Assembly (NCBI GenBank): GCA_904063045.1
Contig: CAJFCJ010000059.1
Location: 55,840 to 119,839 of the forward strand
Source of the DNA: Dimorphilus gyrociliatus
Taxonomy: Eukaryota > Animalia > Annelida
Direction: 5' to 3'
DNA: 64,000 nucleotides
The notes below the pieces were generated by a model. That model ran no database searches and had not been told where the DNA came from. It saw nothing but the letters and a program-made list of their open reading frames with translations. Of the stretch, positions 1,470 to 30,270 are shown one piece after another. Numbering within the stretch: the first letter of the stretch is position 1; the number at the start of each line of letters is the position of its first letter. A program made the position numbers and the translations under genes.

Positions 1470-3409
1470 AAATAAGCATCAATAACATACTTAGAAAATC
1501 AACAAGTACATAACCTAACCCTATATATAGAAATAGATATAGATAATTATATTAATTCTTTTTTTCAAACCTGTTTGTGATATTCTTCCTCAATAAAAAT
1601 TAGTTAAAATTTTGGAAAAGATAAAAAAGAGTAACTGTAAATTTAAAAGCAAAAAAGCCATCTTATTTAGAGTTATTCTGTAAGGAAAAATGTGAAATTC
1701 AACAAGAAAGAACTTTGCATATTTATTGAAATAAAGAACCTAAAAGGTAAACTTTATTTTCATTGGGAATATACAAGTTTTTAGAAAAAATTAAAAAGCT
1801 ATGTAGAATTTTGTAATAAAAAACTTTGTATATTTATTCCATTGGAATGAAGAACTTAAAAAGTAAACTTTTTTCAATGGGAATATACAAGTTTAGAAAA
1901 TAAATAAAAAAGCTACCAAAATAAGGGTTTATATGTATTTTTTTTATACTAAAAGTAACTTTTTTGAATTTTATAAGAAAGGAGGAATATCTCAATATAT
2001 TATATCAACACATCAACACCAATAACAAATAGTTAAAAAACAGAATAAATTCATAGCCAAGGGCTGTAAATTTATTCAAGAAAGACAAGACTCTTCAATA
2101 CAAAACATATACTACTTACTTTGATAGTAAATTTCAGAAGATTCTTTCAAGATAGCTGTTGTCAGGTTTTGATCCTGTAGAATTTGCAATATGCTGATTA
2201 AGACTTTGGTTGGGATGCTGTCAGAAGATTTCAAGTCCACAAAGTAGTAGAGATTCAATCAGTAAAAAATTGATTCTGTAATAAATGTAAGTAGAAATTA
2301 CTAACAATAATTAATGAATTTAACAATTATATGCATCTGTTAATTAAAATATTTAAAGAACTGATATTTATTTCAATACACCAAAAAAGTTAAGAAAAAC
2401 ATAAATCTTACTAGAAATAAAGTCTGGGATGTTGAACTATCCTTCTTCTGTAGTGGAATAGATGAAAGCTATCACACTTTTGGTGAAGAGAAGACCTCTA
2501 TGTTGAGAAAGATTTATTATAACATAATATTTAAAAATAATGTAACATATAACATATAACTAACTGTGTAATCCAAGCAAAATGGAGAAAAAAGCAGCAA
2601 ATAGCAAATCAATCAGCAAAAAATTCTCTCTGTGTAAAGAATATAAAATGATTATTATGAAGAAACCATTAACTGAATATAGTAATTAAATTAACACTTC
2701 TATTAATTAACTTCTATAGCTAAAGAATTAACATTTCTTTCTTTCTTTCTTACATATCAAATATTTGTTTTTGCTTGTAAAATTTTTTTTCATCTAATCA
2801 AATAGATTTTTGCACAATGTTAACAGGCTTGAAAAGCTGATTCTAATGATATATAATATGTCTATATTCCATCAACTGTTTATATGAAAAAAGTTAAGAA
2901 AAGATTATAACTTACTTGAAACAGAGACTGGTCTGGTGAACAGTCTTTTCTCTATGGTAGCAGATGAGAGAATGAGCAATAGCAAGGTTTATATACACTT
3001 TAGCATAGAAAACCCCCATCATGGCAACAAAGCCCTTGATAAGACGCTATCAAAACATGTCACTTGTCACCTTTTCAGATTATATCATTTAAGATAAGGG
3101 CCTTCTTGTGAAGAAAGTGGCTCTCATAGTGTCACCTCTTAACCTTTGAATTATATTTCATAATGTATAGACAAAATTATATATTATATTTTTCTATTTA
3201 AAAAAATAGATTGAAATTCATTGACAATATCAAATAATCATTACAACTAATTGAACAGTCTTCATAATTCAATCAATTAATATCTGCTTAATTAATTAAT
3301 AATTTTATACTATTTTATATATTTAATTATTTATTAGGATATGGTTAGTTTTCAATACTCTTTTAATAATTTTTTGTTATGGTTAAGGGCTAAAGTTAGG
3401 GTTAGGTAG

Positions 3410-4044
3410 TGTACAACTTTGGTTATATTTTACATGCTTGAACTCTATTATTTTATGCAACATATACATGTACATCTTAAAACCTATGCAAGAAAATGCT
3501 AAAACATTGGCCAAACATAAGTCTGATTAGTCAGCTTGAAGGTTCATCTTTAATTACCAATAAAGGTTTGGCCAAGTTATAATTTAATTAACTTGCCTAG
3601 GGTGTGGCCAAGTTATAATTCAATTAACCTTCCTAAATGTTGAACCTTGTAACATCCTGTTACTAAAGATAAATATGAACTACACATTTTGGCAACTGTA
3701 AAGTGATGATTGGATGTCAGAGACAAACCTCAAAGTATATAAATCCTCATTATTCTCATTTGGCATGCAGCTTCCATCTGGACCCAAGGACCTGGGAAAA
3801 TCATCTGGAAACAACCTCCACTGGAACCATCCATCTACTCCTCAACATTAGAAGACAGTTTGGTAATTTGGCAACCTGCTTTTACAAACTATCTACTCTG
3901 CTATCGAACTCTCATATTGTTACTTGCTTAAGTATTATTATTGCGAATAAACCGTTTTAATTTAAACATTTGTTTAAAGGTTCGAGTAGAACCAGTATTG
4001 TTATAACTTGCAAACTCATAGATTTTGCCAGCAAGAGCAGTACA
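3410..4044 (+). repeat. 5' LTR of A1 (635 bp)
   Basis: Direct repeat of 12022-12656 with 6 mismatches; TG...CA ends with 5-bp terminal inverted repeat; internal ~37-bp tandem duplication at ~3569-3640. Confidence 0.97.
3736..3951 (+). promoter_or_regulatory. LTR TATA box (TATATAAA 3736-3743) and poly(A) signal (AATAAA 3946-3951)
   Basis: Motifs lie in the expected U3/R order inside the LTR and are retained in all three intact A LTRs. Confidence 0.55.
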
Positions 4045-4048
4045 AATT

Positions 4049-4066
4049 TGGCGCAGTCGACAGGAT
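4049..4066 (+). promoter_or_regulatory. Primer-binding site complementary to the 3' end of tRNA-Ser
   Basis: TGGCGCAGTCGACAGGAT, 4 nt after the LTR; reverse complement ATCCTGTCGACTGCGCCA matches the recalled eukaryotic tRNA-Ser(AGA/CGA)-type 3' end (...ATCCT.cCGACTGCG-CCA). Confidence 0.8.
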
Positions 4067-4104
4067 ATTCTTTTGGTTTATTCAAAAGTTTTGAGAAAGT
4101 AAAT

Positions 4105-4674
4105 ATGGCAGAAGGAGAAAATGGAAATACCACTGGGGCAGTTACAGACTCTAACCCTTCAACCCCAGCAACTCCAACAATTACAATTCATCCAGCAGGA
4201 ATGTCAGAAAGGCAACAAAGACTAATTGAAGACTATGATAGATTGGTGAGTGAAATGAAAAGAAATCGAATCACAATTCCAACAGATCATGGAGATGGAA
4301 CACATCACCCAGCACAGAACCCAAATGTTGATATCACAACAGTAATTCAAGCATTAAGGGCTGCTTGGGACTGCCCTCAAAGAACTATTCTCAAGTTGTA
4401 TGATGGAAGCAAGGAGTGTTCAAAATTCAAAGAAGACTTTAATCAGGCATGTTATGCTTATGGTTGGATAGGAGAAGATGTTGTGAAAGCAAATCTTTTA
4501 GATTATTTAACTGGTCCTGCAAAGGATTTGGTGTTGGCTCTGGATGGAGAGCCTACTGTGGAGGAAATATGGAAAGCCCTCCATGACGAATTTGATCTGG
4601 ATCCTTTGGAGTATCAAGAGAAATTGCTTAACTTAAAGCAAATGAATGGCAACCACAATTGCTTGCAACTATGA
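4105..4674 (+). CDS. gag: Gag N-terminal/capsid part of A1 (frame broken by an internal deletion near 4650)
   Basis: ATG at 4105 (MAEGENG...); retrotransposon capsid-like segment 'LKLYDGSKE...LLDYLTGPAKDLVLAL...IWKALHDEF' aligns with family B gag at ~26075-26500. Confidence 0.85.
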   Translation: MAEGENGNTTGAVTDSNPSTPATPTITIHPAGMSERQQRLIEDYDRLVSEMKRNRITIPTDHGDGTHHPAQNPNVDITTVIQALRAAWDCPQRTILKLYDGSKECSKFKEDFNQACYAYGWIGEDVVKANLLDYLTGPAKDLVLALDGEPTVEEIWKALHDEFDLDPLEYQEKLLNLKQMNGNHNCLQL

Positions 4675-7600
4675 AAGAAATAAAACTGATGGAAGTTTTA
4701 CAAAGAGGATTACAACAGGATATTCTACATTTAGTGTACACCTTACATCCTAAATGTCAAACATTGGCAGAACTATATGAGGCTGCTAAGCAAGCAGAAA
4801 CTTCATTAAAACTAACTCAAAGAAAACCGATCACAATGGTGTCAAAATTGGAAACTCAACAAAGAAAAGAGACCAAAAAGACCCAGGTAATCAGAAAAGA
4901 TGCTTCTACAGAAACCCCAAATTTCTGGAATAGAAAGCATGTACCTGACAACAAAAATGCTACTAAAGAAAAGTTTTCAAGCCAAAAAGTCCAAAAGTAT
5001 GCACCAACTACAACAAATAGGTATTATAAGAAAAATCAACCAGCAAAGACGATACTGAAAGAGGAACCTAAGCTACAAAAATTAGAAACATTAGACAATG
5101 AAAGCATGTCAGAAAACGACGAAGTTCAAGATATTCTCTGTTTTTCAGATAGTGACGAATCCACTTGTCAGCTGTTACAAAGCAAACAATCTGAGCGAAA
5201 TGCTTCAACATTTATTGGACAATTTGAAACTAATACTGGTTTTAAGTTTGATGCCTTGATAGACTCTGGTAGTGACAGATCTTTCATTTCAAAAAAGGTA
5301 TTAAGACAAGTTCAAGGAAAAGCATCCTTCCCAGAACAAACTGTGAAAAATGCTAGAGATGCTTCAGGAAATAGCATCGAGATATGTGGAGAAATCATTC
5401 TCAGACTTTATTTTAATGAAAAGATTATTAAACAACGCTTTCTGATCAACAAAATCATTACACAACAATGTATTATTGGGTGTGACTTTCTACAACAAAA
5501 TGGAGCTACCCTTGACTTTGGCAAGAGACAGATTATACTCCAGCCAGGTACAGAAAAGAATTACCCTGTTGGAACACAACACTTATCTTTCAAAGGGTTT
5601 TACCCAGTTCCTCTTATTATGAAAAAGAATGAGAGTCAAATACATACCCTTCAGACAACAATTGAACAAGAAAATCCCAAGATGAAGAACAAAGTTACCC
5701 AAATTCTGGCAAAATATAAAGAAACTATTGCAGAAGACAGATTTGATATTGGCAATCCAGAGGTACCACCCTTGGAAATAACTCTTGAACCAGGTTCAAC
5801 ACCATATAGACAAAGGCCATATAGAATGCCTCCTCAAAAACAAGAAGAATGTAAGCAACAGATAGCTGAATTGGTAAAAAGCAAAGTTATTCAACCAAGC
5901 AAGAGCAATTGGGCTTCACCAATTGTTTTCGTAAGAAAGAAGGAAGGTAGTCTACGAATGTGTGTAGATTATAGAAAACTAAACAAAATGACAGTTAAAA
6001 ACAAGTATCCACTGCCAAATCAAGATGATCTTTTTGACCATTTGGGAGGAGGAAATAAATTCTTTTCTACAATGGATTTGACAAGTGCATACCACCACAT
6101 TAATATCAAGAAAGAAGATAGGTCTAAAACAGCATTTATTACACCTTTTGGCTTGTTTGAATTTATTAAGATGCCTTTTGGATTAACCAATGCCCCTCCT
6201 CATTTTAGTTATGTAATGAATTCATTTGTGCTAAAGGATGTAAAGCATTTGTGCCTAAACTACCTTGATGACATAATAATATTTACCAAGTCGCTGGACC
6301 AACATTGGGAAGCATTGGAGACCATTCTTCAACAGATTCAAAAGTACAATTTTAAGATTAAACTAAGTAAATGTGTGTTTTTGAAAGAACAAGTTCAATT
6401 CTTGGGACACATTGTATCAGAAAAGGGGATTGAAACAGATAAGTCCAAGACAGATAAATTATATAATTTACAGCCACCAGTGTTTGCAAATTCACTACTA
6501 AGCTTTGTTGCATTTTGTGGCTATTACAGAAAATTTATACAAGATTTTGCAAGAGTAGCTAAACCTCTGTATATGTTAATGAAACTACATGGGAAAAAGG
6601 ATAAATTGCAATGGACTGAGGAAGCCAAGCAATCATTTTTCAAGTTGAGAGATGCAGTAGTTAACCCTCCTGTATTACAACTACCTGATTTTGCTAAAGA
6701 TTTTCACTTAACAACAGATGCATCGAATGTAGCTGTAGGAGGAGTTCTTGAACAAGTTTATGTAGATGAGAATGGGAAGAAAACAATGAAACCCATTGCC
6801 TACGCTTCAAAACAATTCAACAATAATCAAATGAAATATGCAGCCTATCAAAAGGAAGCATTTGGGGTTTACTGGGTTGTAAAGAAATTTTTACATTACC
6901 TTCAAGACAAGCCATTCTTTTTATATACTGACCATCAGAGTCTAGTACAAACATTTAAGCAAAACAAATTGAATGTCAGCACAGCAAAATGGGTCATGGC
7001 TTTAATGGATTTAAAATTTACAATTAACTATGTGACAGGACGAAAAAATAGAGCAGATGCATTAACAAGATTAGAAGAATATACACCCCCAAGGAAAGTA
7101 ACATTTGAAGAGCTAATTCATGGAAAGATCAAAAAGGAGAATTCTCCCTCTATTTCAGTTAAAATGGAACAGTATGAACATACACCAGAGTTAACTTTTG
7201 TAGCTACCAGTGATAACAGTGAAGAGAAAATTGATTTGTCTTCTGTTGACTTACAGTCAGAGCAAGAAAAAGATGTGAATTTAAAATCAATTAAAGAATA
7301 TTTAACATTGGATGGTCAGCTACCTATTCCTTATTTTGGAACTTTTACACCTTTCATAATGGAGATGTTTGTTCACAAGGAAATGATCTGGATTATCCTC
7401 GAAGAAAGAAACATTCTGGTTTTACCTGACCATTTGATGCTAACTCTGCTCCCTAAATTCCATAAAAATAAAATTCACAATCACCATGGACCCAGAATGA
7501 CATTACAAATAATTACAAAGACCTTTTGGCACCCAAAATTAAAGATTATGATTGAGAATTCAATAAAGGATTGCACTTTGTGTGAACAAATGAATGGTAG

Positions 7601-8360
7601 GAGTAGAGTATACCCTTTGGTAGAAACCTTTCACCCTGCATCACCAATGGAGTTGGTAGCCATGGATATAATGGGACCCTTACCCATGGTTAAGTCATAC
7701 AGATTCATACTTGTGATAGTGGATCATTTCAGTAGATACACAGTTTTATATGCACTCAAACAGCAAACCAGTAAAGAAATTGCAAACCTTCTTTTCAACA
7801 GATTTTTTCCCATTTTTGGAATTCCAAAACAAATGTTGACAGATCAAGGAAGAAACTTTGTTGGTAAAGCTTTTAAAGAGTTTATGAAGGTATTAGGTAT
7901 TGAGAAAATCCAAACAACAGCTTATAGAAGCCAGAGCAATGGACTAGTTGAACGAAGAAATAGAGAAGCGAGGAAGGAAATCAATAAATTAGTGGTGGAA
8001 GAAAATCAGCATAACTGGGTTGCAAACCTACCCTTGATTCAAGCATTTTTGAATCAATCACCTGTAGGAAGTACAAGACTACCACCCCAGGAACTTCTTT
8101 TTGGCACCAGCACAAGAACACTGATTGATGTAACAATGCATACTACCTCTCCTGAAACAAATGTACTATTTGTATTCAATCACCAGCAGCAATTGGTACA
8201 GTTAAGAGCTACAGCCTTCTGTAAATCCATCATGGCAAAAGAACAATATAGGGAAAGAAAGAATAGAAATCTCAATCTTCCAAAATATTTTGAGGTTGAT
8301 GATGAAGTATTCTTAAGAAATGATGCTGCAAGAATTGCAATAACAAAATCCCTTCTTTAA
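4659..8360 (+). CDS. pol: Gag C-terminus-Pol polyprotein: protease, reverse transcriptase, RNase H, integrase
   Basis: Protease ALIDSGSDRSFIS/IIGCDFL; RT WASPIVFVRKK..LRMCVDYRKLN, YLDD; RNase H LTTDASNVAVGGVL, YTDHQSL; integrase HH..C..C, MDIMGP, TDQGRNF, QSNGLVERRNRE. Confidence 0.97.
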   Translation: MLATMKEIKLMEVLQRGLQQDILHLVYTLHPKCQTLAELYEAAKQAETSLKLTQRKPITMVSKLETQQRKETKKTQVIRKDASTETPNFWNRKHVPDNKNATKEKFSSQKVQKYAPTTTNRYYKKNQPAKTILKEEPKLQKLETLDNESMSENDEVQDILCFSDSDESTCQLLQSKQSERNASTFIGQFETNTGFKFDALIDSGSDRSFISKKVLRQVQGKASFPEQTVKNARDASGNSIEICGEIILRLYFNEKIIKQRFLINKIITQQCIIGCDFLQQNGATLDFGKRQIILQPGTEKNYPVGTQHLSFKGFYPVPLIMKKNESQIHTLQTTIEQENPKMKNKVTQILAKYKETIAEDRFDIGNPEVPPLEITLEPGSTPYRQRPYRMPPQKQEECKQQIAELVKSKVIQPSKSNWASPIVFVRKKEGSLRMCVDYRKLNKMTVKNKYPLPNQDDLFDHLGGGNKFFSTMDLTSAYHHINIKKEDRSKTAFITPFGLFEFIKMPFGLTNAPPHFSYVMNSFVLKDVKHLCLNYLDDIIIFTKSLDQHWEALETILQQIQKYNFKIKLSKCVFLKEQVQFLGHIVSEKGIETDKSKTDKLYNLQPPVFANSLLSFVAFCGYYRKFIQDFARVAKPLYMLMKLHGKKDKLQWTEEAKQSFFKLRDAVVNPPVLQLPDFAKDFHLTTDASNVAVGGVLEQVYVDENGKKTMKPIAYASKQFNNNQMKYAAYQKEAFGVYWVVKKFLHYLQDKPFFLYTDHQSLVQTFKQNKLNVSTAKWVMALMDLKFTINYVTGRKNRADALTRLEEYTPPRKVTFEELIHGKIKKENSPSISVKMEQYEHTPELTFVATSDNSEEKIDLSSVDLQSEQEKDVNLKSIKEYLTLDGQLPIPYFGTFTPFIMEMFVHKEMIWIILEERNILVLPDHLMLTLLPKFHKNKIHNHHGPRMTLQIITKTFWHPKLKIMIENSIKDCTLCEQMNGRSRVYPLVETFHPASPMELVAMDIMGPLPMVKSYRFILVIVDHFSRYTVLYALKQQTSKEIANLLFNRFFPIFGIPKQMLTDQGRNFVGKAFKEFMKVLGIEKIQTTAYRSQSNGLVERRNREARKEINKLVVEENQHNWVANLPLIQAFLNQSPVGSTRLPPQELLFGTSTRTLIDVTMHTTSPETNVLFVFNHQQQLVQLRATAFCKSIMAKEQYRERKNRNLNLPKYFEVDDEVFLRNDAARIAITKSLL

Positions 8361-9571
8361 AATGGTTAGGCCCATACCGAATAACAAAAGTCAATCATCA
8401 AAAGTGGATATATGAAATACAAATGGATGATAATACATGCAAGTTGGTACATGGTAGCAGATTAAGACTAGCCAATGAATCTAATAAGTTGGAAACAAGG
8501 AAAGAAGCAACAACAATCTTTCACCTTGTGGAGAAGGAAATAACACACCTCCAATATCTTTCTCAGGTAGAAGGAAGAAATGACTTCCAATTCCGTTTGA
8601 AGAATCAAAAAGGCCAAGAAGTCATTGCCTTGTGTGACACAGGAGCATTGAGATCCTTTATTACTGAAAAAGAAATCAAGTTAATGGATGTTACAATTAT
8701 GGATAAAGAAACAATTGGCTTACCAATTATAACTTCAGCTGATGGGAAAGCTTTAAAGCAAAAAGGAAGCGTAAAGCTGAATATCCAATTTGCTGGAGAA
8801 AGTATGAAACAAGAATTTATAGTTATGGAAAATCTAGACATAGCAATAATACTTGGTTGTGATTTCCTACAAACTGTGGGAGCAAACCTCAATTTTGAAG
8901 CTAAACAGTGTTCTCTCAAATTTGATAGAAGGAAAGGGAACCTGGCTGAAAGAATAAGGCAACCTCAACTAAACAAAGTCACTATAGCCATGATGGGACA
9001 GCATGACTCTTCATCAGAAAGTTCAGATAGTGATGACTCAGAGATGGAAGTTACTAATTCTGATACTGGTTATGACACAAGCAATACTTTCAAAACAGAC
9101 AGTAATTACAGTCTCAATGAACCTTCAAGCTCATCTGAAAGTGATGACACAGAAACAAATAATGAACTGGATAAAAATACAGATTCAGAGGCAAACATTA
9201 TCTCTGATAGAGAAGATGAAATATCTAGTTCAGACAATGAGTCAATAACTATTGAAAGCGAAATTATTGATATAACCCATTCGGATAATGAGTCAATAAT
9301 TATTGAAGGTGAAATTATTGACATAACCCATTCGAATAATGAGTCCCTCATAGTGGTAGATTCATCCCAAGATGAGAAAGAAAATACAAGTGACACAGAC
9401 AATGAGTCAGTGATATTTTTAGATGAGACTAAAATCATCTCTGAACAATTAGATTCCCAACAAGAAGTGGAACCACAATATATAGAGTTAGAAGATGGAA
9501 TAACTATCAGAGTGGAACAACAACACAAAATTTTCAACCATTCAACTATAGCCAACACAGGAAGAGCTAAC
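8330..9571 (+). CDS. Integrase C-terminal GPY module followed in frame by a second retropepsin-type protease and an acidic S/D/E spacer
   Basis: Frame of ORF 8423-10399 read upstream gives KIPSLKWLGPYRITKV; then VIALCDTGALRSFIT...IILGCDFLQTVGANLNF; then an acidic region with 17-aa repeats. One-base frame slip from pol near 8334. Confidence 0.88.
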
Positions 9572-11990
9572 ATGAAACAGATGTTGTGGCTTCCACTAGT
9601 GATGACTGTAATGGTGATCTGTGGCTGCATCCACTCAATAACAGTCCCAAAACCATCCTACCAAGGTGCACATGTTACAAGTGCAAACATTACCTTAACA
9701 TTTAAACCACCGTTATACTTTTGTTCTAACCAACTACCAAGCCAGGCATTTGATCTAGCAGATGAGCCAACTTGTAATATAGAATCACAAGAAACCAAGA
9801 CAATTACAGCTGATATCTATGAATTGAACTTGGAAGAAATTGAAACAAGAGCAGTAAAATGTCAAGTGTATCTAAGAACTAATTTTTACACTTACTATTT
9901 CTTTGGAGCAAAGAAGAGGAGAATTGTTAACTCAGTTATCAAAGTAACTCATGATCAATGCAGACAGATGGTAAAAGACAAACGATCTTTTCAAGGAAAA
10001 CCTTTAATGGTGAAAAGAAACACTTGGATCCACCAAGATCAGTTTCCTGCTGCCTACACATGGCCAACAACTACCAAGGTGCTGGAATACACCACAATTA
10101 TCCAGTTTGGCAAAGCATATTGGCAACCTCCTAATATGAAAATTACAACTAATCTGGACTACCTGGAAGATTGTTTACCAGGGCAGTCCTATTGTGAGAC
10201 AGAAGAGGCAATTATTGTCTTTAGAAACCTCAAGAATAATTACACACTTGGGCAACAATCACCATGGATAAAAATTAGCAACAGAATTAGTTGTATCAAA
10301 TTTGCTGGTCACTATTCTTGTCCAGGGTATTCTATTCTGGACATCCCTTATCAAGATAAGTTATTGATGGAATTGGTGGTCCTGGAACAAAAGTACTAGT
10401 ACCACTGGAGGAACAGAGTTTAATACAGGAAACAAGCAAGGAACACCTATACAATTTGCTACAATATCAGAAGATTGGCAAAATGAAGAAAAACGACTAT
10501 TAAACTATCCCAATAAAGTTAAAGAACAAATTATACTATACAAGCGAAACAACCCCTTACCAAGTCTTAACCAATGGTACAGAGAAACAAACACAAAGTA
10601 TAAACTAATGAGAAATAAAGGCACACTCAAGGAAGTTGTGATATATCATCTACAACAACCCATTAGTCCATCTTACTGGGAGCTGGATAACTATTATATC
10701 CAAGAAATGCTGCAAGCAGTCAATTGGACAAGGGCAACAAGACAATCTGTGACGATTTCAAAATATGTATACAGTGAGAAAAGAATCAAAAAGAAGGTAT
10801 TACCAACATTGGGCATATGGTATAAAGGACCACCAGCCAGAGAATTTAAGATTACCTATGAAGGAATTTATTTTACTCTACACATGAGAATGGCTAAAAA
10901 GCAGATGAAGAAGGAAGCAAAACTGAAACATAAGATAAGTAAAAACCCATACCACAAATTCCCATTGGAAATGAGAGAAGCTGCCCAAACATCTACCTTA
11001 CTACATGGTATTGATTCAAATTTTAAGAATTTAAAAAAGTTTACCCAACAGCTGTCAAGTCTTCTCTGCAATCAATTTGTTCAAAGAAGCAGAATGATGG
11101 CATTACTAGCAAATTTGGATCCTCAATTGACCACAGTGTTAACAAATGAGTTGGGAATGCACAGTAGTCAGATGGGAGAATTAGCTATAATTAAACAATG
11201 TTCACCAATAGCCTCAACAGAAGTAGTTTGTGACTTAAGCATGATAAAAAAGAATAACAAATGTTCTCAATTTTTACTTGTCACCATGAACAACCTGCTT
11301 TTCCAAGTAGAACCAGTTACTCATGTTTTACAGCAAGTCAATCCTGAAGAGATTACCTATAATGAGTGTAAGTCTAACAAGTTATTCTACAAAACAACTC
11401 ACAACCCATTAAATCCTATAAGAAACCAACCAATGAAAGACAAAACGTATGTGTATTATTCAGAAAGAGGATGCAGATTTCACACTGTGTCTGCAAAATC
11501 CATGCAGTTACATATCCACAATCACCTTTCTGAACCAAAAATTGAAATTGCCAGATTAGCTGATCTACTCCACCATGGGGTAAAGAAGGATATTGCATAC
11601 CAGCACTCAAAAATTAAGCAAGTTATCAGTTCACTGGAACAGAAGCAGGCAAGGTATGATAACATGGTCACTGTTGCAGAGAAAAATGGCATTGTACCCA
11701 ATTTATCTGGAATTAAACAGTTTTTCCATAGTTGGTACTATAAACCTGGGAAAACACTTTATGTTATCATACGAAATATTTGTTTGAGTATTGTAGTGTC
11801 AATGGTATGTATCATCATTTTCAACTATATTATTGGAAGAAGAAAACAAAGAGAAGAAATTGCTACCCCAAGTGAGAGCACAGATAACTCTCCTGAAAAC
11901 CCAAAACTAATGAAACAAAGTTGTAGCTTTAGTCAACATCAAACTAATGAAGAAGAACAACCACCTGTAATTCTCATTAAATCAAGATGA
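9572..11990 (+). CDS. env: Env-like glycoprotein, probable class III (gB/chuvirus-like) fusogen, ~806 aa when two 1-nt deletions (~10370, ~10481) are corrected
   Basis: Signal-like MKQMLWLPLVMTVMVICGCIHS at ATG 9572; Cys-rich ectodomain; C-terminal TM (IIRNICLSIVVSMVCIIIFNYII-RRKQR). Copy A2 has the intact bases at both indels. Confidence 0.85.
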
Positions 11991-12006
11991 AGGGACTCAT
12001 CTTCAC

Positions 12007-12020
12007 AAAGAAGGGGGAAG
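12007..12020 (+). promoter_or_regulatory. Polypurine tract
   Basis: AAAGAAGGGGGAAG immediately before the 3' LTR; same tract at 33621-33634 on the minus strand. Confidence 0.9.
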
Positions 12021-12021
12021 T

Positions 12022-12656
12022 TGTACAACTTTGGTTATATTTTACATGCTTGAACTCTATTATTTTATGCAACATATACATGTACATCTTAAAACCTATG
12101 CAAGAAAATGCTAAAACATTGGCCAAACATAAGTCTGATTAGTCAGCTTGAAGGTTCATCTTTAATTACCAATAAAGGTTTGGCCAAGTTATAATTTAAT
12201 TAACTTGCCTAGGGTGTGGCCAAGTTATAATTCAATTAACCTTCCTAAATGTTGAACCTTGTAACATCCTGTTACTAAAGATAAATATGAACTACACATT
12301 TTGGCAACTGTAAAGTGATGATTGGATGTCAGAGACAAACCTCAAAGTATATAAATCCTTATTATTCTCATTTGGCATGCAGCTTCCATCTGGACCCAAG
12401 GACCTGGGAAAATCATCTGGAAACAACCTCCACTGGAACCATCCATCTACTCCTCAACATTGGAAGACAGTTTGGTAATTTGGCAACCTGCTATTACAAA
12501 CTATCTACTCTGCTATTGAACTCTCATATTGTTACTTGCTTAAGTATTATTATTGCGAATAAACCATTTTAATTTAAACATTTGTTTAAAGGTTCGAGTA
12601 GAACCAGTATTGTTATAACTTGCAAACGCATAGATTTTGCCAGCAAGAGCAGTACA
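12022..12656 (+). repeat. 3' LTR of A1 (635 bp)
   Basis: 99.1% identical to 3410-4044 by manual comparison. Confidence 0.97.
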
Positions 12657-12844
12657 GCATTACATAATCCTAAGCATTGATAAATGATAACTCTGCTTCA
12701 AATTCCCAGTTTCCAGCATATGCTATATATTCTTTCATTTATTTCACAGACATTACTTCCAATTGAAAATTCAATTAGACAACATCACTTCAATTATCAG
12801 TAATCATCTCTGAATCCTTCACTCAACAGCAGAAATTGATAAAT

Positions 12845-13974: not shown

Positions 13975-14200
13975 GCCTAAAATAATTAAATGGTATGTAA
14001 TTATTTTATTTTGCAGTATTCAGTATAAGTAGCACTTTAACTTGGTGTTAATTAAACAAAAACCTAACAGTGATTTTTGATGTGTATGACAAAAAACCAA
14101 GTCTACTACAACAAGCCTTGTCTGAATATTGCTTGTAGGAATTTTTTCAGTATCTGGTAATACTTTCCTATTACAAATAAAAGGACCATTTGATTTTATA

Positions 14201-17200
14201 ATGGATTCATGCCTTAATACTGATGAAAAATTGTGTCTTAATTACAATAAAACAGAAATTGAAAAATTACTTAATACTAAATCAGTCTTTGATAGAGTAT
14301 GTATAAAATTAACAACTCTACAATTGTTATATCCTGATGACAAAGATATACTACAAAAGCAATATGATGGTGAGCAAAAAAGTTTGGCTGTTCAGTATAT
14401 TTTAAACAAATTGTGGCAGCTAAATTTTGTAGATATTTGGGAAATTTTCTTTGATATCGAGGATTTGAACTGTCAAAGATTAGCTGAGTGTTTATCTGAA
14501 AAAAAGAAAATATGGGAAAAATTGATTTGTGATACTAAAATAGAACGAAAAAAAGAATTTACAACAATTCCATTACTTCCTTTCACAAAAACTGAAGTCA
14601 AAATATCTGATATTATAACATCTATTAAAATATCTGAGGTACAGAAAATTGATATAATTGATTGGGAATTACAGAAAACAGAATATGAATATGAACATTT
14701 CTATAGAATATTTTGTTCAGAATTCAAAAAAATTTTAATTCAAGGCAAGCCAGGAATAGGCAAAAGTGTACATGTCAAATATCTACTCCACAAATGGGCA
14801 AATGACCAATGGAAAATTGATTCTCAAAAACTATTGTTATTTATCATTTTAAGAGAGGTTAAAAAAGATTCAAATATCTATCAGGAAATAATTGAACAAA
14901 ATTTCAAAAATATTCCATATATCACTGAAAATATAGTGGAATCTATTTTTGTTGAAAAGAGAAATGATGTTGTTCTTTTGATTGATGGGGCTGATGAGTT
15001 ATATCAAACAAATCATCCTCTATATGATCTATTAGAAAGTCCAATATGTGATATTCCAACTGCAATATGGTCTCGTGAATGGAGAGCAAAAGAATTACTT
15101 TCAAAATGTGATATAATATTTGATTTAACAGGTTGGAATACAACTCAAATGAGATCATTTTTTCAAAAGTGCTTTAAGGATGGAGATATTCAAAAGAGTT
15201 TAGAATTTGTAGAAAGTCTAGTTCACAAAAATAAAAAAATTGAGAGTCTCTGCAAGGTCCCATTGTTGGCAATGATATTATTTCATGTTTGGAAGAAAAG
15301 AGGGGAATCTATCTTTGATAGAACTCTTTATCAAAATTATGAAGATATAATAAGTTTTCCACAAGAAAATCATAGTTGCATCACAAAAGAAAATGATAAA
15401 AACTTTCAAACATTTTATGAACTCTGCCTTGAAAATCTTTCACAAAGTAAGATTATTTTAGATGATAAAAATCTATCTAATTTTATTGAGATACATTATA
15501 AAAATATAATTGAAATTATTCATTTGCCAACAAACCAAGTTGAATTACAATTCTATCATTTATCTTTTCAAGAGTTTTTTGCTGCAAAATGTCTAATTGG
15601 AAAAGCTAAAGACATTTTAATCGGAAGGATAAATGATATATTTAATTGCTTTTTACCAAGAAGAAATAACATAAATAGTCTATTTGAAGAATTAACCCAT
15701 ATAAATCTTTTTAATGTCATGGAATTTGTACAACATCATTCCACAGATATCTTTAAGAAAATTCTTCTACATTCTGAAATTGTTAGAGATATGTTTAACT
15801 TTAGCAATAACCTCAAAAAACTTTTAGAAAATGGTTTTGAAAATGACAAAATGATGAAATTAGAGAATGAAACTTTGAATGATGCTATCATTAACATTAT
15901 CTTTATTAAATATGGCAAAAATTTAGAGAATATCATTTTGATTAACACATCAGTAAATTTGAAATTATTGATTGATTGCTGTTTTGAACACTGTACAAGA
16001 TTAAAGTTTTTGGAAGTGAAAGGTCAAAAATTATATAATAATAATGAAGCATTTAAAGAAGATCTTTTTTTGGAGAATCTATTAAATCTGAAATTTTTTA
16101 AAGAATTAGAGAAAATACAGATTGGAGAGAATTTTTTGGATGTTAAAGGAAATACTATTTCTGGCCAATTTTTTGATAATTTTTGTAAATTTATCATCAT
16201 TTATTCTTCTAATTATATTATAGAATTTACTGATGAAGCATTCAATTCAAAAAACTACTTTACTGATGCAAAGATTAAACTTTTTGAAGGCTTATTTCAA
16301 CTAAAAAAATTGGTTATTGCAAATAAAAACTTTGGAGAAACTGGTAGAAAAAGGTTTTTTTCAATGATAGAGAAAAAGCTACAGAACACACAATTTAAAG
16401 AGTTTGAAACATATAACTGTGAAATAAGCAATCTGGACTGTGAGTTTTTGGATAATTACCTTAAATTAATTACAAATCAATATTGTCAAACATCTTTTGG
16501 AGGAACAACACATGATGAACAATTTTCAAATGATTATATCTCTCTTAAAATAGATAGTAATAGTCTACTTAGGGGTCGGGTGTGAACGTACCTGGGTGCG
16601 AACGTACCCGGGTGCGAACGTACCCTGGGCGGGTGCGAACGTACCCTGGGCGGGTGCGAACGTACCCAGGTACGTTCGCACCCTATTTTTATATTTATTT
16701 TATTTTTGAATTTTTGAATAAACATGTACATTGACACCCTTTTTTCCTTCTGTTCCTTCATTATATATTTGTTAATATATTGATTAGATAGAATGCAGAT
16801 ATTAAATAGAATACATATCCCATCAATATTAAATTACTACTTTAAAAGAAAATGTTGTTGAAAGTGAAATAGCAGCCATTTTAATAGTGATAGTTTTATT
16901 AAATAAACTTTCACTTGGAATATTTATCCTTGCAAAAGTAAAGCTATATTTACTGAATAAATTTGGACAAAGTTCTTCTTGGAAGCTTCAACAGAAGTGA
17001 GTATTTATATCTAATCATTGAGATTGTTGATTCATGATATTTTGATGTAATATACTATATTCAATTGTGAAAAAGCTGAATATTTTTCATAAATAAAATT
17101 TCAGCCATTTTGAATATTTGGAAAGGAAATTTATTGATAACTGGAAATATTTTTAGATAACCATCTACATTTGATTGAAGATTAAAAAATGGCTTTCAAA

Positions 17201-20200
17201 TGTCACAATTGTCATTCAACAATTTATGGAAGGCAAAAATATTTGAAATGCAGCCTTTGTAAGAATCTTATTCATAGGAAATGCACAGGTATGTAACTCT
17301 TTAATCAGCTTTCATGTAATTATATTTTTTAACATATTCTTATAGAAACACATAACATACCAATTTGCAAACCTTGTAACAAAAGAAAATGTACTGTCAT
17401 GCTCAAGAAGTTAACTAATCTGGAAATTCATCAATTCAAAGTAAATTCTGAAGAAAGCTTTATTGATGAAAGAAATAAGATTGCTGCAGTTGAGGAATCA
17501 ATATTGGAGGATGAAAATCATGTTCTTTCAGAATGCCAATCAATGGACCTAGACTCTTTGGAGGAAGTTGAAGAGAATGCTGAAGAATATTGTGAATCAT
17601 CCACAAAAAGTGATTTTGAGATTGTAAAAGGAGGAAGTAGAAAGGGACATGACATTTTACTGAATGATGGATATTCTTTTGTTGTTAAACATAAAACACC
17701 ATCAAGTACTATTTGGGTGTGCAGTGTGAGAAGTAAGAAGAAAAGATGTGTGGCCAGAATAAGACAAAATGGAAATTTATTTCTCAAAGGCAATTTGGAA
17801 CATAATCACAACAGAAAAAAGAATTTAGAAGTGGATATTAAAGTGAAAACAGATTTGAAAATTGTTTGCAGAAGTGATAATCAAACATCTGGAAGAAGCA
17901 TTGCTGAAAAAGTTCTTCTATCCTATGAACCCAATGCAACTTGTCTTCCTGATATCAACTATTTGAAGAGAATGGCAAACTCAAATAGACAAAAGTTTAG
18001 GCCAGTGGAACCTAAAGTGTACAACTTTAATTTAGATGAAACATTTTTGCCTGATGAATTTTTGCAGAAAGATATTTGTGAAAATGGAGAAAGAATTTTA
18101 ATCTTTGCAACAAACCATCAGCTGAATTTATTATCAAAATCCAACTGTTGGTACATTGATGGTACTTTCAAGATTGTAAAAGAACCATTTTATCAACTTG
18201 TCACTATTCACTCATTTGTTAAGAAGAGTGGTGATATGAAGCAAGTTCCTCTTGTTTTTATTTTTCTGACTTCAAAGCATACCAAAGCATACTTACAAGC
18301 ATTTCAAGTAAATATTTCATATTATCTCTTCAAAAGTGATGATAAATAAAGTTGCTTTTTTGTAGCATATCAACAATCTTATCAATGATTTTCATCCAAA
18401 AAGAATTACAATGGATTTTGAAAAAGGACTATGGAAAGCATTATCAAAAGTATATCCCCTCACTGAATTTCAAGGTTGTGTATTTCATTTCACACAAGCA
18501 GTATACAGGAAAATACAAGTCAGTTACATTCAAATATATATAACATTATCTATTAAATAACTTATATTATTGAATAGGCTCTTGGCTATGTAAAGAAATA
18601 CAAAGAAAAAGGAAATGATTGGAAAGATTTCAGAAAATTGATGGCTCTGCCATTCTTGCCAGCACATATTATTCAACCAACATTTGACAGAATAAATGCA
18701 GAACTTTGTGAAAAAAATAGATTTTTGGACCTGCTGCAATACTTCCAAACAAACTGGATCAAAAATAAATTATGGAAACCAAATAACTGGTCAGTTTTTG
18801 GTTTGTCTATTAGGACCAATAATGATTGTGAAGGATGGCATCAAAGAATGAATAGTAAGCTGCCTGCTAAAGGTTCTTTTTACATGCTGGTTGATGAGCT
18901 AAAAAAGAGTCTGAGTTGATTGCAGTTTATGAGAAATTACTGTCAGAAAAAAGGATTTACAAACATCAAAAGAAAAAGTATATTGACATCCAAAAGAAAA
19001 TTTTTGATTTATGGGATGATTTCAAGTTGAACAAATTGACATCAATTGATCTATTAATGCAGACATCCCATATCTACTCTCCAGCATAAATATCATTTGT
19101 CAAGCTTTATTGTTTTTTAGTATAATATTTAGTCTTTTAAATACATACTTTTAGATTTATAGCTAAATCTTTTATTCAAAAATTCAAAAATAAAATAAAT
19201 ATAAAAATAGGGCGCGAACGTACCTGGGTACGTTCGCACCCGCCCAGGGTACGTTCGCACCCGGGTACGTTCACACCCAGGTACGTTCGCACCCCAACTC
19301 GTCTACTTACTATCACATATTCAAACAAAAAGAAAAGGGTTGTATGGTATTCTGTCATGAAAAACCTCTTTCAACAGGAAAAACTAACTTTTATCAAATG
19401 GCTACCTAATAGTAAGTTTTCAGAAAAAAGATCTGTACACTTAATTGGACATTATTGTGATGTTATTACTGTTATAAAGATTATTATTAACTCTGACAGC
19501 CAGATGTTTAGTACTCTACAATTATTAAATCTTACTCATATTAAAATATCCAATGAAATAGATTTCAGTCAATTCATCAACTCAATTAAGCTTCTACCTT
19601 GCTTAACTGACATAAATTTTGAAAAACTTCAGAATACTAAAGAATATTTACAAACAACTCTCAATCATTTGAACTGCAAATCTATTACTTTAAGTCACCT
19701 AAATTTTGATTCATGTAATTTAACACCCATTGAAGCAAAAATATTGAGTCAATTCTTAAAACCAATTAAACATTTGAAAACACTGAATTTATCAAACAAC
19801 AAGTTGATGAAAGACAAGTTTCAAACAATTTGCCTTGGACTAAAATCTTCTTTTAAATCATTTGAGGGAATCAATATCCAAAACTGTAATCTCAATCACA
19901 CACATATGGATTCTTTTGAAAAATTAGTGTTACCCTCTTCTAATTTAGTGTACATCAATTTATCAGGAAATCCAAACATACAGAAGTCAGTATCAACAAT
20001 CTTTGAAGAATTACACCATTCTTCTAAAACATTAAAAAAGATTGAAGTCAATAACTGTAGCTTAACTATTGAAGAAGGGCATTCACTGGGGAAATTACTT
20101 AAAAAGTGCCTGTATATAACACATATTGGATTGGCATGGAATAAAAATTTGGGTGAATCATTTGGTAAAATACTTGAAGGATTAGAATCATCTTCAGATG

Positions 20201-22572
20201 TTTTGAAAAATATTAATTTAGGCAGCTGCAGTTTAAATGAAAAAAAAGGAAAATCTTTGGGAAAAATGTTTAAAAAATGCTCATCTTTAACAGAGATTAA
20301 GTTGGGAGCAAATAAAAATATTGATGAATCATTTCAAGAAGTTTTTAAAGGCTTAGACTCATCTTCAAAGACATTAGAAAAGATTGATTTTAATTACTGT
20401 TCTTTGAATAAAGAATATGGGAAATCTCTTGCAGAGTTATTAAAAAACTGTTCACATATCAAGTGCATTGACTTAAAAGGTAATAAAAACCTGGGAAAAT
20501 CATTCAATTTTGTGTCTGAAGGATTAGCTTCATCATCAGAAACTTTGCAAAAGATTCTTCTTGAAATGTGTAACTTAAATGTTGAGCAAGGACTATTTCT
20601 AGCAAAGTTATTTACAAAGTGCTTTCTTATAAAAGGTGTTAATATTGCCAAAAATAATAATATACGTAAATCATTTACAGAAATATTTGAAGGATTGGAA
20701 TCATCTTCAAAAACATTGGAATATGTTAATGTTGGGTGGTGTAAATTAAATGAAGAACAAGGGAAATCTTTGGGAAAACTACTTAAAAAGTGTTCTAATT
20801 TGAAAAACATAGATTTGTCTGGTAATAAAATTATGGGTAAATCAATGAATGAAATATTTCAAGGATTGGAATCATCTTCAAAAACATTGGAATATGTTAA
20901 TGTTGGGTGGTGTAAATTAAATGAAGAACAAGGGAAATCTTTGGGAAAACTACTTAAAGTATGTTCTAATTTGAAAAACATAGATTTGTCATATATTACT
21001 GTTTTGGGTAAATCAATGAATGAAATATTTCAAGGATTGGAATCATCTTCAAAAACATTGGAATATGTTAATGTTGAGTGCTGTAAATTAAATGAAGAAC
21101 AAGGGAAATCTTTGGAAAAACTACTTAAAACATGTTCTAATTTGAAAAAGATAGATTTGTCTGGTAATAAAGTTATGGGTAAATCAGTGAATGAAATATT
21201 TGAAGGATTGGAATCATCTTCAAATACTTTGGAAAATATTAATGTTGGGTGGTGTGAACTAAATGAAGAACAAGGGAAATCTTTGGGGAAACTACTTAAA
21301 AAGTGTTCTAATTTGAAAAACATAGATTTGTCATATAATAATGCTATGAGTAAATCAATGAATGAAATATTTGAAGGATTGGAATCATCTTCAAATACAT
21401 TGGAATATGTTAATGTTCAGTTTTGTGAATTAAATGAAGAACAAGGGAAATCTTTGGGAAAACTACTTAAAGTATGTTCTACTTTGAAAAACATAGATTT
21501 GTCTGGTAATAAAGTTATGGGTAAATCAATGAATGAAATATTTGAAGGATTGGAATCATCTTCAAATACTTTGGAAAATGTTAATGTTGGGTGGTGTGAA
21601 TTAAATGAAGAACAAGGGAAATCTTTGGGAAAACTACTTAAAAAGTGTTCTAATTTGAAAAACATAGATTTGTCTGGTAATAAAGTTATGGGTAAATCAA
21701 TGAATGAAATATTTGAAGGATTGGAATCATCTTCAAATACTTTGGAATATGTTAATGTTCTGTTTTGTAAATTAAATGAAGAACAAGGGAAGTCTTTGGG
21801 AAAACTACATAAAACATGTTCTAATTTGAAAAAGATAGATTTGTCTGGTATTAATGTTATGGGTAAATCAATGAATGAAATATTTGAAGGATTGGAATCA
21901 TCTTCAAATACTTTGGAAAATGTTAATGTTCGGTTGTGTGAATTAAATGAAGGACAAGGGAAATCTTTGGGGAAACTACTTAAAAAGTGTTCTAATTTGA
22001 AAAAGATAGATTTGTCTGGTATTAATGTTATGGGTAAATCAATGAATGAAATATTTGAAGGATTGGAATCATCTTCAAATACATTGGAACATGTTAATGT
22101 TCGGTGTTGTGAATTAAATGAAGAACAAGGGAAGTCTTTGGGAAAACTACATAAAACATGTTCTAATTTGAAAAACATAGATTTGTCTGGTAATAAAGTT
22201 ATGGGTAAATCAATGAATGAAATATTTGAAGGATTGGAATCATCTTCAAATACTTTGGAAAATGTTAATGTTGGGTGGTGTGAATTAAATGAAGAACAAC
22301 TGAAATCTTTGGGAAAACTACTTAAAAAGTGTTCTAATTTGAAAAAGATAGATTTGTCTGGTATTAATGTTATGGGTAAATCAATGAATGAAATATTTGA
22401 AGGATTGGAATCATCTTCAAAAACATTGGAATATGTTTATGTTGACTGGCGTAAATTAAATGAAGAACAAGGGAAATCTTTGGGGAAACTACTTAAAGTA
22501 TGTTCTAATTTGAAAAACATAGATTTGTCATATATTACTGTTTTGGGTAAATCAATGAATGAAATATTTTAA
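14201..22572 (+). CDS. NLR-type protein (death-fold-like N-terminus, NACHT NTPase, ribonuclease-inhibitor-type LRRs), interrupted by a MULE at 16572-19300
   Basis: Walker A ILIQGKPGIGKS, Walker B LLIDGADEL, FYHLSFQEFFAA motif, 28/29-aa alternating LRRs. Removing the element plus one TSD joins ...SNSLL-T-ITYSNKKKRVVWYSV-MKNLFQ in frame (1877 aa). Confidence 0.9.
16572..19300 (+). mobile_element. Mutator-like (MULE) DNA transposon, 2729 bp
   Basis: Perfect 9-bp TSD GTCTACTTA (16563-16571 / 19301-19309); TIRs 16572-16722 and 19171-19300; encodes a MULE transposase. Confidence 0.95.
17189..19089 (+). CDS. Intron-containing PHD-FLYWCH-MULE transposase (introns 17289-17345, 18308-18365, 18519-18577; 1-nt slip in A-run at ~18905)
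   Basis: Spliced reading gives MAFKCHNC...CSLCKNLIHRKC/ETHNIPICKPC (PHD), TIWVCSVRSKKKRC (FLYWCH), WYIDGTFK, MDFEKGLW..GCVFHFTQ and RTNNDCEGWH. Confidence 0.85.
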
Positions 22573-24478: not shown

Positions 24479-24765
24479 TGTACTGATCTTGCTGGCAAAA
24501 TCTATGCCTTTGCATAGTTCTACTCAAACCATTTAAATGAATGTTTAAATTAAAACAGTTTATTCGCAAATAATAATACTTAAGCAAGTAACAAGCTGGG
24601 AGTTCAATAGCAGAGTAGATAGTTCATAATATCAGGTCGCCAAATTACCAAACTGTCTTCCTATGTTGAGGAGTGGATGGATGGTTCCAGTGGAGGTTGT
24701 TTTCAGGTTATCTTCCCAAGTCCTTGGGTCCAGATGGAAGCTGCATGCAGAATGAGAATAATGAG
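24479..24765 (-). repeat. Diverged partial family A LTR (3' half)
   Basis: Reverse-complement match to ~3750-4044, ending TGTACTGATCTTGCTGGCAAAATCTATG; many substitutions. Confidence 0.85.
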
Positions 24766-25217
24766 TCTACACTTATGAACTATAGTTTATAGATATTTTA
24801 TAAATGATACTTACTATATGGTAAAAGTGTTGAAGTAGATGTTGCCTCTAGGGTAGATGGTACCGAACTGCCACAATCAACCCCTTTTATAGGCAAAGGA
24901 TAAGATGTTACATAACAAACATGTTGACAACAACAACAAAGGTTTATTTACATAAATATAATGTAAGAATTGACCCTTGATGGGTAACCTACACAAAGTT
25001 GTTGTTTACATCACTATTGCATAATATGACAACCCTTGACCCTATTTGTTGTGAATAATCCTTATCTGGGGTTAGACCCTTGTTGTTGACAGCCAAGGCA
25101 TAAACAACTGATAAGGAATTGTATAAAAGCAGGGTGTAGGCAGTAACAGGCATTTAGTCCTGAATCAACTCCCTTAGTGAACAGGTCTAGTATTAATTTA
25201 GAATACAGTTTTATTAT

Positions 25218-25820
25218 TGTACTTTGTTGTATTGTAATTGCAGGAATTTCTGCTTCTTCAGAACAGTATTTGTCCTTTCCAATCATTTATCAATTTACTA
25301 AAGTACTGGTCCAATTAGAACCTTTCAAGTTCATCTACAAATAGTCATAACAAATGTAATTTTGGTGGAAATAATTCAACAAAATACTAGTATTTTGTCC
25401 AAAGAATATGTATTGAGTAAATGAGTTTCTAGTTCTAAACAAGTAAGTTTAAACAACCAGTTAACAGTTAAAGAACTGAACTGACAAGCTGGGGAAATGC
25501 ATTTCCTTTTATACATTTCCAAAGCTGGGTTCAAGTGGTCAAAGGATTACAAAGTTGAAATCTGACTGTCTCATAATTCCCAAGTAGCCACCATCTGTTA
25601 CAGTCAAGAGTCTATTTCTTACAAAATAGAGTTCTTTCTACAGTACTAAAAGCTAACACTACGAAATAAAAGTCTTTCTAAAGTTCCACCACTATAATCG
25701 CTACAAAATATAAGTAATTCTATAATTGCACCAGTCTAATTCTTATAAAATAGAAGTCTTTCTAATGTAACCTTATATCTAAAGTCTAAGTATTGATATA
25801 TCATTATATCTAAGTGCACA
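25218..25820 (-). repeat. 3' LTR of a family B variant (B', ~603 bp)
   Basis: Shares its U5 end with 30271-30540; followed on + by the reverse-complement PPT GATATCCCACCCTTTT and env tail, as at 31205. Confidence 0.8.
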
Positions 25821-25834
25821 GATATCCCACCCTT

Positions 25835-26078
25835 TTAAGACCTTGCTTCCACGAAAGGTCTGGGACCTGTCACAATGACTCTATTACCTTCTTTTGAATA
25901 TGTTGGATAGTTTTGAAGAGGTATTGCTTCTTTGTCAATTTCCATAGTTGAGTATGTTGGAATCTGTAATTCTTCTTGTTGTATACTTGGAGCTGTTGGT
26001 TTGGCTTTCCTTCTTTCTTTGGAAAAGACAATTGCAAGTCTTCTAATTGATGCTAATGAGAAACCTAATACTACTTTG
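25835..26078 (-). pseudogene. env: C-terminal TM/cytoplasmic tail of a family B env
   Basis: Minus reading ...VVLGFSLASIRRLAIVFSKERRK...LQNYPTYSKEGNRVIVTGPRPFVEARS* matches the env B end LQNYPMFRKSGDNIIVTSPRPFMEARS* at 31219. Confidence 0.8.
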
Positions 26079-29676: not shown

Positions 29677-29751
29677 AACAATTTCCAAGAGAAAAGATTT
29701 TTTCAAAATATTTTCAAAAAATTTTTTGAAAAAATCTTTTATTATTTCCTA

Positions 29752-29824
29752 CCTACTCAACCTACCTTGGTTTCGTCCCCCTCTCTACTAAATTTTTAAA
29801 CCTGGGACTCATCAGGGTCTACTA
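29752..29824 (-). ncRNA. Type I minimal hammerhead ribozyme motif with intact core
   Basis: Minus strand: TAGTAGACC-CTGATGA-GTCCC-(24 nt)-GGGAC-GAAA-C-CAAG-GTA^GGTTGAGTA; predicted cleavage after GUA (29763). Confidence 0.75.
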
Positions 29825-30240: not shown

Positions 30241-30270
30241 ATTCTTCAACCTAAAATATATAAAACAAGA

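Follow-up and report, generated by a model that had tools for sequence, protein, structure and literature searches.

The window analyzed here, 64,000 nucleotides (nt) of DNA from the annelid Dimorphilus gyrociliatus (contig CAJFCJ010000059.1 of assembly GCA_904063045.1, forward-strand positions 55,840 to 119,839), holds a complete long terminal repeat (LTR) element, E1, at 3410–12656, in which a predicted second protease (PR2) and an acidic spacer stand between integrase (IN) and the envelope gene (env). Retroelements are taught as having one protease, located before the reverse transcriptase (RT). The reading that we tentatively favor is that E1 captured a second retropepsin together with the spacer, and that PR2 is likely active as an accessory protease, with its cuts on the side of the Env signal peptide that faces the cytosol. 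A captured protease kept next to env by a young multi-copy family would mean that whole enzyme modules pass from one LTR family to another and can stay in frame. Should PR2 have a job of its own, it bears on two points in the many invertebrate elements that encode Gag-Pol-Env in one frame, the release of Gag-Pol from the Env signal anchor and the setting of Env amounts; if it is a passenger, E1 offers a tidy case of inter-family recombination and a warning for annotation.

A second retropepsin after integrase

The original prediction described a complete D-T-G retropepsin between the integrase GPY motif and env, followed without a stop by an acidic spacer and the env signal peptide, with the normal protease also present upstream of RT. 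All of these features were recovered. A stop-free frame of 691 codons (8324–10399; all E1 features are on the forward strand) extends from KWLGPY, one half of the integrase GPY/F motif, across PR2 (8516–8941, D-T-G at 8636–8644) and a Ser/Thr-rich spacer (8996–9529) into the predicted env signal peptide (9572–9637, cleavage site placed by eye) and env. The spacer contains 51 Asp/Glu and 7 Lys/Arg in 178 residues (net charge −44), and the hydrophobic stretch after Met 9572, which stands in good start context, is the only such stretch of the frame (Kyte-Doolittle 2.36). The canonical protease, PR1 (5190–5561, D-S-G at 5262–5270), exceeds one Pfam cut-off only (RVP, 24.0 bits; cut-off 20.7). PR2 exceeds four: RVP_2 (32.6 bits; cut-off 20.3), Asp_protease_2 (27.6; 24.3) and the two whose use had been suggested beforehand, gag-asp_proteas (30.6; 28.2) and RVP (27.6; 20.7).

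The structure model of PR2 (predicted local distance difference test, pLDDT, 81.8, from 35 sequences) matched Ddi1 and retroviral proteases, with 47 matches in the Protein Data Bank at E ≤ 0.001, and the domain carries the D-T/S-G, flap and G-x-D helix of the single-domain retropepsin fold. On this model PR2 is a complete retropepsin with an intact D-T-G. It resembles the MEROPS A2-like retropepsins (the RVP domain of Ddi1 and the proteases of human immunodeficiency virus and equine infectious anemia virus) in fold, D-T-G, flap and G-x-D-F-L helix, and differs from them in its position after integrase. To judge by sequence likeness, it is closely related to the protease that sister families ordinarily carry and is not a new kind of enzyme. 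PR1 retains D-S-G, the flap glycines and the G-x-D-F-L helix, and PR1 and PR2 are 32% identical in amino acids.

In the window copy, the frame that encodes PR1, RT, RNase H (RH) and IN (4632–8360) ends inside the GPY/F motif and differs from the frame of PR2 and env. This is one of four breaks, which lie in gag near 4650, in the integrase tail (pol stop at 8360) and in env near 10360 and near 10480; three of the four are small and may be assembly errors. Because the pol frame stops in the GPY/F motif and gag and env are broken as well, the window copy alone does not demonstrate a Pol-Env polyprotein, toward which the contigs of other copies do point. At the integrase-tail break, a programmed −1 frameshift was weighed and set aside, since by eye no in-register X XXY YYZ heptamer precedes the stop.

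Five public sequencing runs from two studies contain 84–88% of the sampled words of the window, and a sixth, picked by its species label, contains next to none. We compared contigs of four runs (X1, X2, X5 and X6) with the window. An X1 contig (5420–10995) and an X2 contig (7704–10930) each bridge IN, PR2, the spacer and env, and an X5 contig (6326–9512) bridges IN to the end of the spacer; the colinearity that the original prediction left to be checked in other copies was thus found. At the four breaks, the main contigs of X1, X2 and X5 show length differences relative to the window. By length arithmetic, with each contig spanning part of the element only, the dominant copies probably carry all genes from gag to env in one frame of ~2,650 codons. 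The frame for the Pol-Env polyprotein that had been proposed is interrupted in the window copy but probable in the dominant copies. X1 and X2 come from one study and are possibly not independent of the window assembly, and contigs lose rare variants.

No credible joint removing PR2 and the spacer was present among the 15 of 43 joints listed. In X6, two joints (5983–9016 and 7571–8688) lead into PR2 or beyond it; they were discounted, as their sides measure 21 and 24 nt and the run appears base-converted, with C>T or G>A at 56 of 72 changed places. Neither X1 nor X2 yielded an additional contig at least 85% identical that adds depth over PR2, which leans against a close donor, although contigs cannot prove a donor absent. 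From these comparisons, the IN-PR2-spacer-env arrangement appears to be family-wide and a misassembly unlikely. A second copy of the E1 family in the window, on the reverse strand (32985–36296), comprises the end of the spacer, env with a stop near 35520, and the 3′ LTR; it is 99.4% identical to E1 over 3324 nt and stops at a single N (36302), hence it reveals nothing on PR2. A 766-nt X5 contig ~90% identical to the start of env (9535–10289) suggests a diverged subfamily.

Origin of PR2 and relatives of E1

The window also holds a fragment of a sister element, E2 (26028–29676, forward strand), recognized from an open reading frame (ORF; 26181–28328), Pfam, tblastn and alignment, in the order gag, protease, acidic spacer, RT and RNase H. 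E2 has a PR2-type protease in the canonical place before RT (26802–27236). PR2 and the E2 protease are 76% identical in nucleotides over 357 nt and share 87 of 136 residues (64%), and the E1 spacer (8966–9529) is identical to the spacer between protease and RT of E2 at 101 of 188 aligned residues. The likeness of the PR2-spacer block begins near 8515 and stops near 9528. Over the rest of the two elements, identity is 35% for gag, 35% between PR1 and the E2 protease, and 53% for RT-RNase H with saturated synonymous divergence (dS), compared with a dS of ~1.0 between PR2 and the E2 protease; the E1 env is 34% identical to a sister env at 31305–32984. In a tree of 25 protease domains, whose bootstrap had not converged, PR2 grouped with E2, P0002 and the gag-linked P0004 at 99/98, and PR1 fell outside this clade on a long branch (2.47). 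In P0004 the PR2-type protease directly follows gag, and in P0048 RT, IN and an env tail resembling the sister env are linked with an E2-like spacer. Several PR2-type families are present in this host (E2, P0002, P0048), and D. gyrociliatus is the source of the named proteins closest to PR2 and the spacer.

Because PR2 is closest to the pre-RT protease of a sister family (64% identity, compared with 32% to PR1), it was likely captured with the spacer, as a segment of ~1 kb, from the gag-pol junction of such a family by recombination. Both capture joints are in frame, for which the chance is 1 in 9. The simplest history would be two template switches, or a nested insertion followed by deletions, in frame at both ends. 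In E2 itself, the spacer comprises 225 residues between protease and RT with a net charge of −58 and 63-nt repeats, and 443 residues separate the D-S-G from the RT lead-in, compared with 183 in E1.

E1 is bounded by a 5′ LTR (3410–4044; 635 nt, TG...CA) and a 3′ LTR (12022–12656), preceded by a polypurine tract; the two differ at 6 of 635 nt (99.06% identity). A primer-binding site (PBS) lies at 4049–4060 and the 5′ part of gag at 4105–4674, as given by the ORF list; gag is broken near 4650, where the contigs of X1, X2 and X5 differ from the window. PR1 is followed by RT and RNase H (5931–7007; Pfam RVT_1, RT_RNaseH and RT_RNaseH_2) and by the integrase zinc finger and core (7425–8360; Integrase_H2C2 and rve), with the pol stop at 8358–8360. 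The second half of the integrase GPY/F-SH3 tail (8354–8473) lies in the downstream frame and was detected with our own six-sequence profile at 16.2 bits (E 8e-7 in a search of two sequences only). No chromodomain was found after integrase (8354–8560) by Pfam or a three-sequence profile, only this tail. The order PR-RT-RH-IN (Pfam on 4632–8357) is that of Ty3/gypsy elements (Metaviridae), the nearest matches are likewise gypsy-type, and E1 has the two LTRs, PBS and polypurine tract of a Ty3/gypsy LTR retrotransposon. The flanks at 3400–3409 and 12657–12666 differ, and no target-site duplication is visible; its absence despite 99% identical LTRs marks a recombined or collapsed copy and leaves the family assignment untouched. 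Env (9572–11990, broken near 10360 and 10480) has a transmembrane helix at 11784–11834 by hydropathy. The model of its first 262 residues (pLDDT 73.3, from 8 sequences) matched herpesvirus gB, with a best E of 1.7e-6 and a low query template modeling score of 0.30–0.36, and the relative P0003 passes Pfam Rhabdo_glycop_FD. According to this model, E1 fits an errantivirus in the wide sense with an HSV/gB-type env (HSV, herpes simplex virus), in which a signal peptide, a class III fusogen ectodomain and a C-terminal transmembrane helix lie downstream of pol.

E1 very likely belongs to the family of Annelida_Polychaeta_Dgyr_errantivirus_1 (Chary and Hayashi, eLife 2026, PMC13524379), a 'Dingle' element, to judge by a match in PBS, LTR length, spacing and env type. 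As listed in that paper and its supplements, Dgyr_errantivirus_1 has 7 copies >98% identical over its three ORFs, a 12-nt PBS identical to that of E1 at equal distance from the LTR end, a 635-nt 3′ LTR, an HSV/gB-type env, and gag and pol in one ORF; the LTR-to-LTR distance is 8684, compared with 8612 in E1 (within 72 nt). It is labelled GAG-POL with a chromodomain, the latter undetected in E1. Two short E1 motifs were not found in the supplements, whose long cells are cut, and the word 'protease' occurs once in the main text, in a figure legend, and not in the seven supplements. Dingle (Dinophilidae Gypsy-like) elements are described as the most abundant LTR class of D. gyrociliatus and, like E1, have a gB-like env downstream of integrase (PMC7854359); the text of that report makes no mention of a second protease, and its domain map (Extended Data Fig. 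3d), outside the scope of the search, may show one. The literature searched, a scope that leaves out Repbase, GyDB, most subscription papers, the figures of the key papers and the eLife sequence repository (the last two of which may show PR2), gave no published account of an additional protease in such an element, whether tandem or placed after integrase. The arrangement is family-wide and apparently undescribed, within a known element family. Of the original claim of an undescribed system, the lack of a second protease in the available texts stands; the family itself is very likely published, PR2 is by its sequence an ordinary retropepsin, and two-protease polyproteins occur elsewhere.

One-frame Gag-Pol-Env elements are known. 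Elements so labelled exist in the eLife supplements (PMC13524379), and the Atlas belpaovirus is another, described as a BEL/Pao element with a class II Env, unlike E1 (PMC9094657). Among 76 long relatives of the E1 RT-IN region, 42 contain a single RT; the 34 with multiple RTs, which resemble gene models across nested elements, were left out. Env is in frame in 8 of the 42, with one detected protease in seven, and the IN-env order occurs in P0107 (12 members, of E1's env type) and P0126 (6 members). Both are one-frame Gag-Pol-Env proteins with Env after IN behind an internal hydrophobic signal stretch; unlike E1, they have one protease, before RT, and neither a protease nor a long acidic spacer between IN and Env. 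The eighth, P0104 (3203 residues, one contig), has two tandem proteases after env, in the one-frame order Env-PR-PR-RT-RH-IN. Its proteases, directly after the Env anchor, are sisters in the tree (97/93), a tandem duplication. P0065/P0066 (Logan, 1845 residues) have the order PR-RT-RH-PR-IN with a domain, OTU-like by eye only, before the second protease. P0104 and P0065/P0066 share with E1 two D-T-G retropepsins and a single RT and differ from it in the positions and origins of the proteases, neither having one between IN and env; no printed description of their two-protease layouts was found. Two further proteins, P0008 and P0015, are short and consist of two or three tandem retropepsin-like domains. 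Homologues of the 691-residue frame at near or longer lengths numbered 0 among 7042 and 0 among 6826 candidates, and a HMMER scan with this frame gave 65 matches, none spanning both PR2 and env. Locus scans did not find the layout in metagenome contigs (PR2; env alignment) or viral contigs (env), and the ESM Atlas gave no usable match.

Possible selection on PR2 and its possible roles

In a polyprotein with an internal signal peptide, established topology has host signal peptidase make its cut on the luminal side of the endoplasmic reticulum (ER). Release of Env by PR2 had been proposed; because signal peptidase cuts in the lumen and PR2 would be cytosolic, PR2 is unlikely to free the Env ectodomain and could cut only upstream of the signal helix. 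Beyond the anatomy, we infer the following steps. Once the internal signal peptide is translated, the ribosome would be brought to the ER and Env would enter it, whereupon host signal peptidase would free the Env ectodomain into the lumen, while the signal helix would keep Gag-Pol-PR2-spacer tethered at the membrane. Crowded there, PR2 would dimerize and cut around itself, and this cut would free Gag-Pol before particle assembly activates PR1.

Splicing from donor 4246 to acceptor 8567 is a predicted option, whose product would encode a short precursor of a Gag leader, PR2, the spacer and Env that lacks RT and IN. The candidate donor, in gag (4246–4251), is the sole sense-strand GTRAG between the LTR and 5851, and the candidate acceptor lies at the N-terminal edge of PR2 (8557–8567), with no further pyrimidine-rich YAG, at the threshold used, between it and the env ATG; both predicted sites are in codon phase 0. 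The acceptor-like site is missing at the matching place of E2. Between 8567 and 9572 no acceptor with at least 9 of 12 pyrimidines is present; weaker YAG sites are. A spliced RNA joining the first 47 gag codons to PR2, the spacer and Env (donor 4246, acceptor 8566/8567) is a weak lead, since there are eight pyrimidine-rich acceptors in 8 kb, the match of donor and acceptor was noticed post hoc, and neither a 4246–8567 joint nor another sense-strand joint to the PR2-env region is among the 15 of 43 joints listed. We consider it unlikely that PR2 is a dedicated Env-precursor protease, cutting at the ER membrane in this spliced product or in the full polyprotein while PR1 matures the particle. 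Such a division of labor between PR2 and PR1 may have arisen more than once, P0104 being a further element with an additional protease next to its Env anchor. A comparable division is seen between the leader and capsid proteases of RNA viruses.

The original prediction also suggested estimating, for PR2 across copies, the ratio of nonsynonymous divergence (dN) to dS. Between PR2 and the E2 protease, dN was 0.23 and dS 1.0, giving a dN/dS of 0.23 (bootstrap 0.11–0.39), which indicates no decay and is also compatible with recent capture from an unseen donor; the ratio was 0.26 (0.14–0.46) for the PR2 core only and 0.33 for the spacer. The branch lengths of PR2 (0.25) and E2 (0.23) are alike. PR2 has lost one conserved column, by a conservative change, and changes polarized with P0002 number 9 on the PR2 side and 11 on the E2 side. 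Under free drift of 10% per site, one lost column or fewer would have P 0.04, and the lack of a stop in 352 codons P 0.02 (substitutions only). By these measures PR2 shows no sign of decay.

A number of observations weigh against the reading that we favor. The window copy is broken in the integrase tail, and an X6 contig spans this break without a length difference. The published copy is labelled GAG-POL, not GAG-POL-ENV, in the supplements of PMC13524379, and its listed length, taken modulo 3, leaves one break if all of the difference is coding, so that copies not in one frame probably exist. A protease after integrase occurs in 0 of the 42 single-RT long polyproteins, and the layout does not need PR2, since P0107 and P0126 join Gag, Pol and Env in one frame with a single protease. 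The good start context at ATG 9572 means that Env could arise without PR2. With regard to selection, PR2 matches 24 of 35 conserved columns derived from 32 outside proteases (E2 23, PR1 18), a set collected with PR2 as the query and favoring it. With P0004 used to polarize them, 11 changes map to PR2 and 5 to E2 (P 0.21), and the low dN/dS could be a legacy of a donor that went unsampled. Drift of less than ~5% since capture is compatible with the data (P 0.28 for columns, 0.13 for stops). Because 10% drift is unlikely but 5% is compatible, PR2 appears to be either selected in its new place or recently captured from an unseen donor.

The main rival reading, that PR2 is a tolerated passenger of a recent in-frame recombination, is in our estimate less likely than not. 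Selection would then act only to keep the frame open for Env, PR1 would make all the cuts needed, and PR2 would be redundant even if active. The single-protease Gag-Pol-Env proteins P0107 and P0126 agree with this, as do the youth of the family (LTRs 99.06% alike, and published copies listed as >98% identical) and the transfer of the spacer along with PR2, which a block transfer predicts; with several host families of the PR2 type (E2, P0002, P0048), a closer donor may be unsampled, and conservation of the layout in other species was not found in the searches made. However, ~1 kb was retained in a family that spread, neither a PR2-less form nor a donor at least 85% identical is visible in X1 or X2, the intact conserved columns cap drift at less than ~10%, and the acceptor-like site at the PR2 edge is not in E2. 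A role of PR2 in general Gag-Pol maturation, taken over or shared as PR1 weakened, or a pairing of both proteases in cis that tunes the timing of processing, seems decidedly unlikely. PR1 does score lower in Pfam, matches 18 of the 35 columns against 24 for PR2 and sits on the long branch of 2.47; yet its motifs (D-S-G, flap glycines, G-x-D-F-L helix) are all kept, it is as distant from the E2 protease (35% identity) as E1 is from its sisters in gag (35%) and env (34%), which plain vertical divergence predicts, and the column count is biased towards PR2.

It is very unlikely, in our view, that translation of Env starts at its own ATG (9572), from an RNA that is spliced or separate, with PR2 and the spacer a mere integrase tail or untranslated. 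The start context there is good, insect errantiviruses are described as expressing env from a spliced subgenomic RNA (PMC13669377), and copies broken in the integrase tail exist (the window copy and probably the published one). Against this, 8567–9572 offers only YAG sites weaker than 9 of 12 pyrimidines, no sense-strand joint to the region is among those listed, and the frame is open across both capture joints. Scarcely credible, and already largely refuted, is an assembly chimera or a one-off nested insertion confined to the window copy. The window is a nest of related LTR elements, E1 has four breaks and no target-site duplication, and X1 and X2 may be related to the assembly source; but single contigs in three runs from two studies bridge the IN-PR2 joint, the copy at 32985–36296 has the same spacer-env joint, the published element of near-equal length is listed with 7 copies, and PR2, at 76% identity to E2, is not a mis-joined piece of E2.

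Probable antisense introns and neighboring genes

The main X5 contig skips 60 nt inside PR2 (8664–8723), a stretch with GTAAG...TTTCAG ends on the antisense strand; the pattern GTRAG..YAG is met by 5 of 118,635 antisense windows. Decay of PR2 as the cause of this in-frame skip was rejected on account of its canonical antisense intron ends and of the median intron of D. gyrociliatus, stated to be 66 nt (PMC7854359). Contigs of X5 and of a further run, X3, skip 57–66 nt with GT..AG ends on the strand opposite the elements at 8664–8723, 11344–11402, 31338–31394 and 33301–33366, so that skips like that in PR2 also occur in env, a sister env and an LTR. These skips likely reflect antisense transcripts that cross several LTR families and are spliced, of the kind that a silencing locus resembling a Piwi-interacting RNA cluster might make.

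The surrounding LTR nest (24479–36591) includes a partial E1-like LTR (24479–24765) and, on the reverse strand, an env tail with LTR that abuts the E2 gag. The sister env (31305–32984, reverse strand) is interrupted by the second E1 copy, and a short high-depth repeat lies near 30878–31204. Elsewhere in the window, NACHT-like NTPase frames with a long leucine-rich repeat of 171-nt units, by eye NLR-like immune genes, occupy 14126–16585, 19141–22572 and 61348–63219, and these genes are split by a Mutator-like transposon with inverted ends at ~16578–19294. Exons of a STAT-like gene, with DNA-binding and SH2-like parts recognized by eye, lie at 46669–48206.

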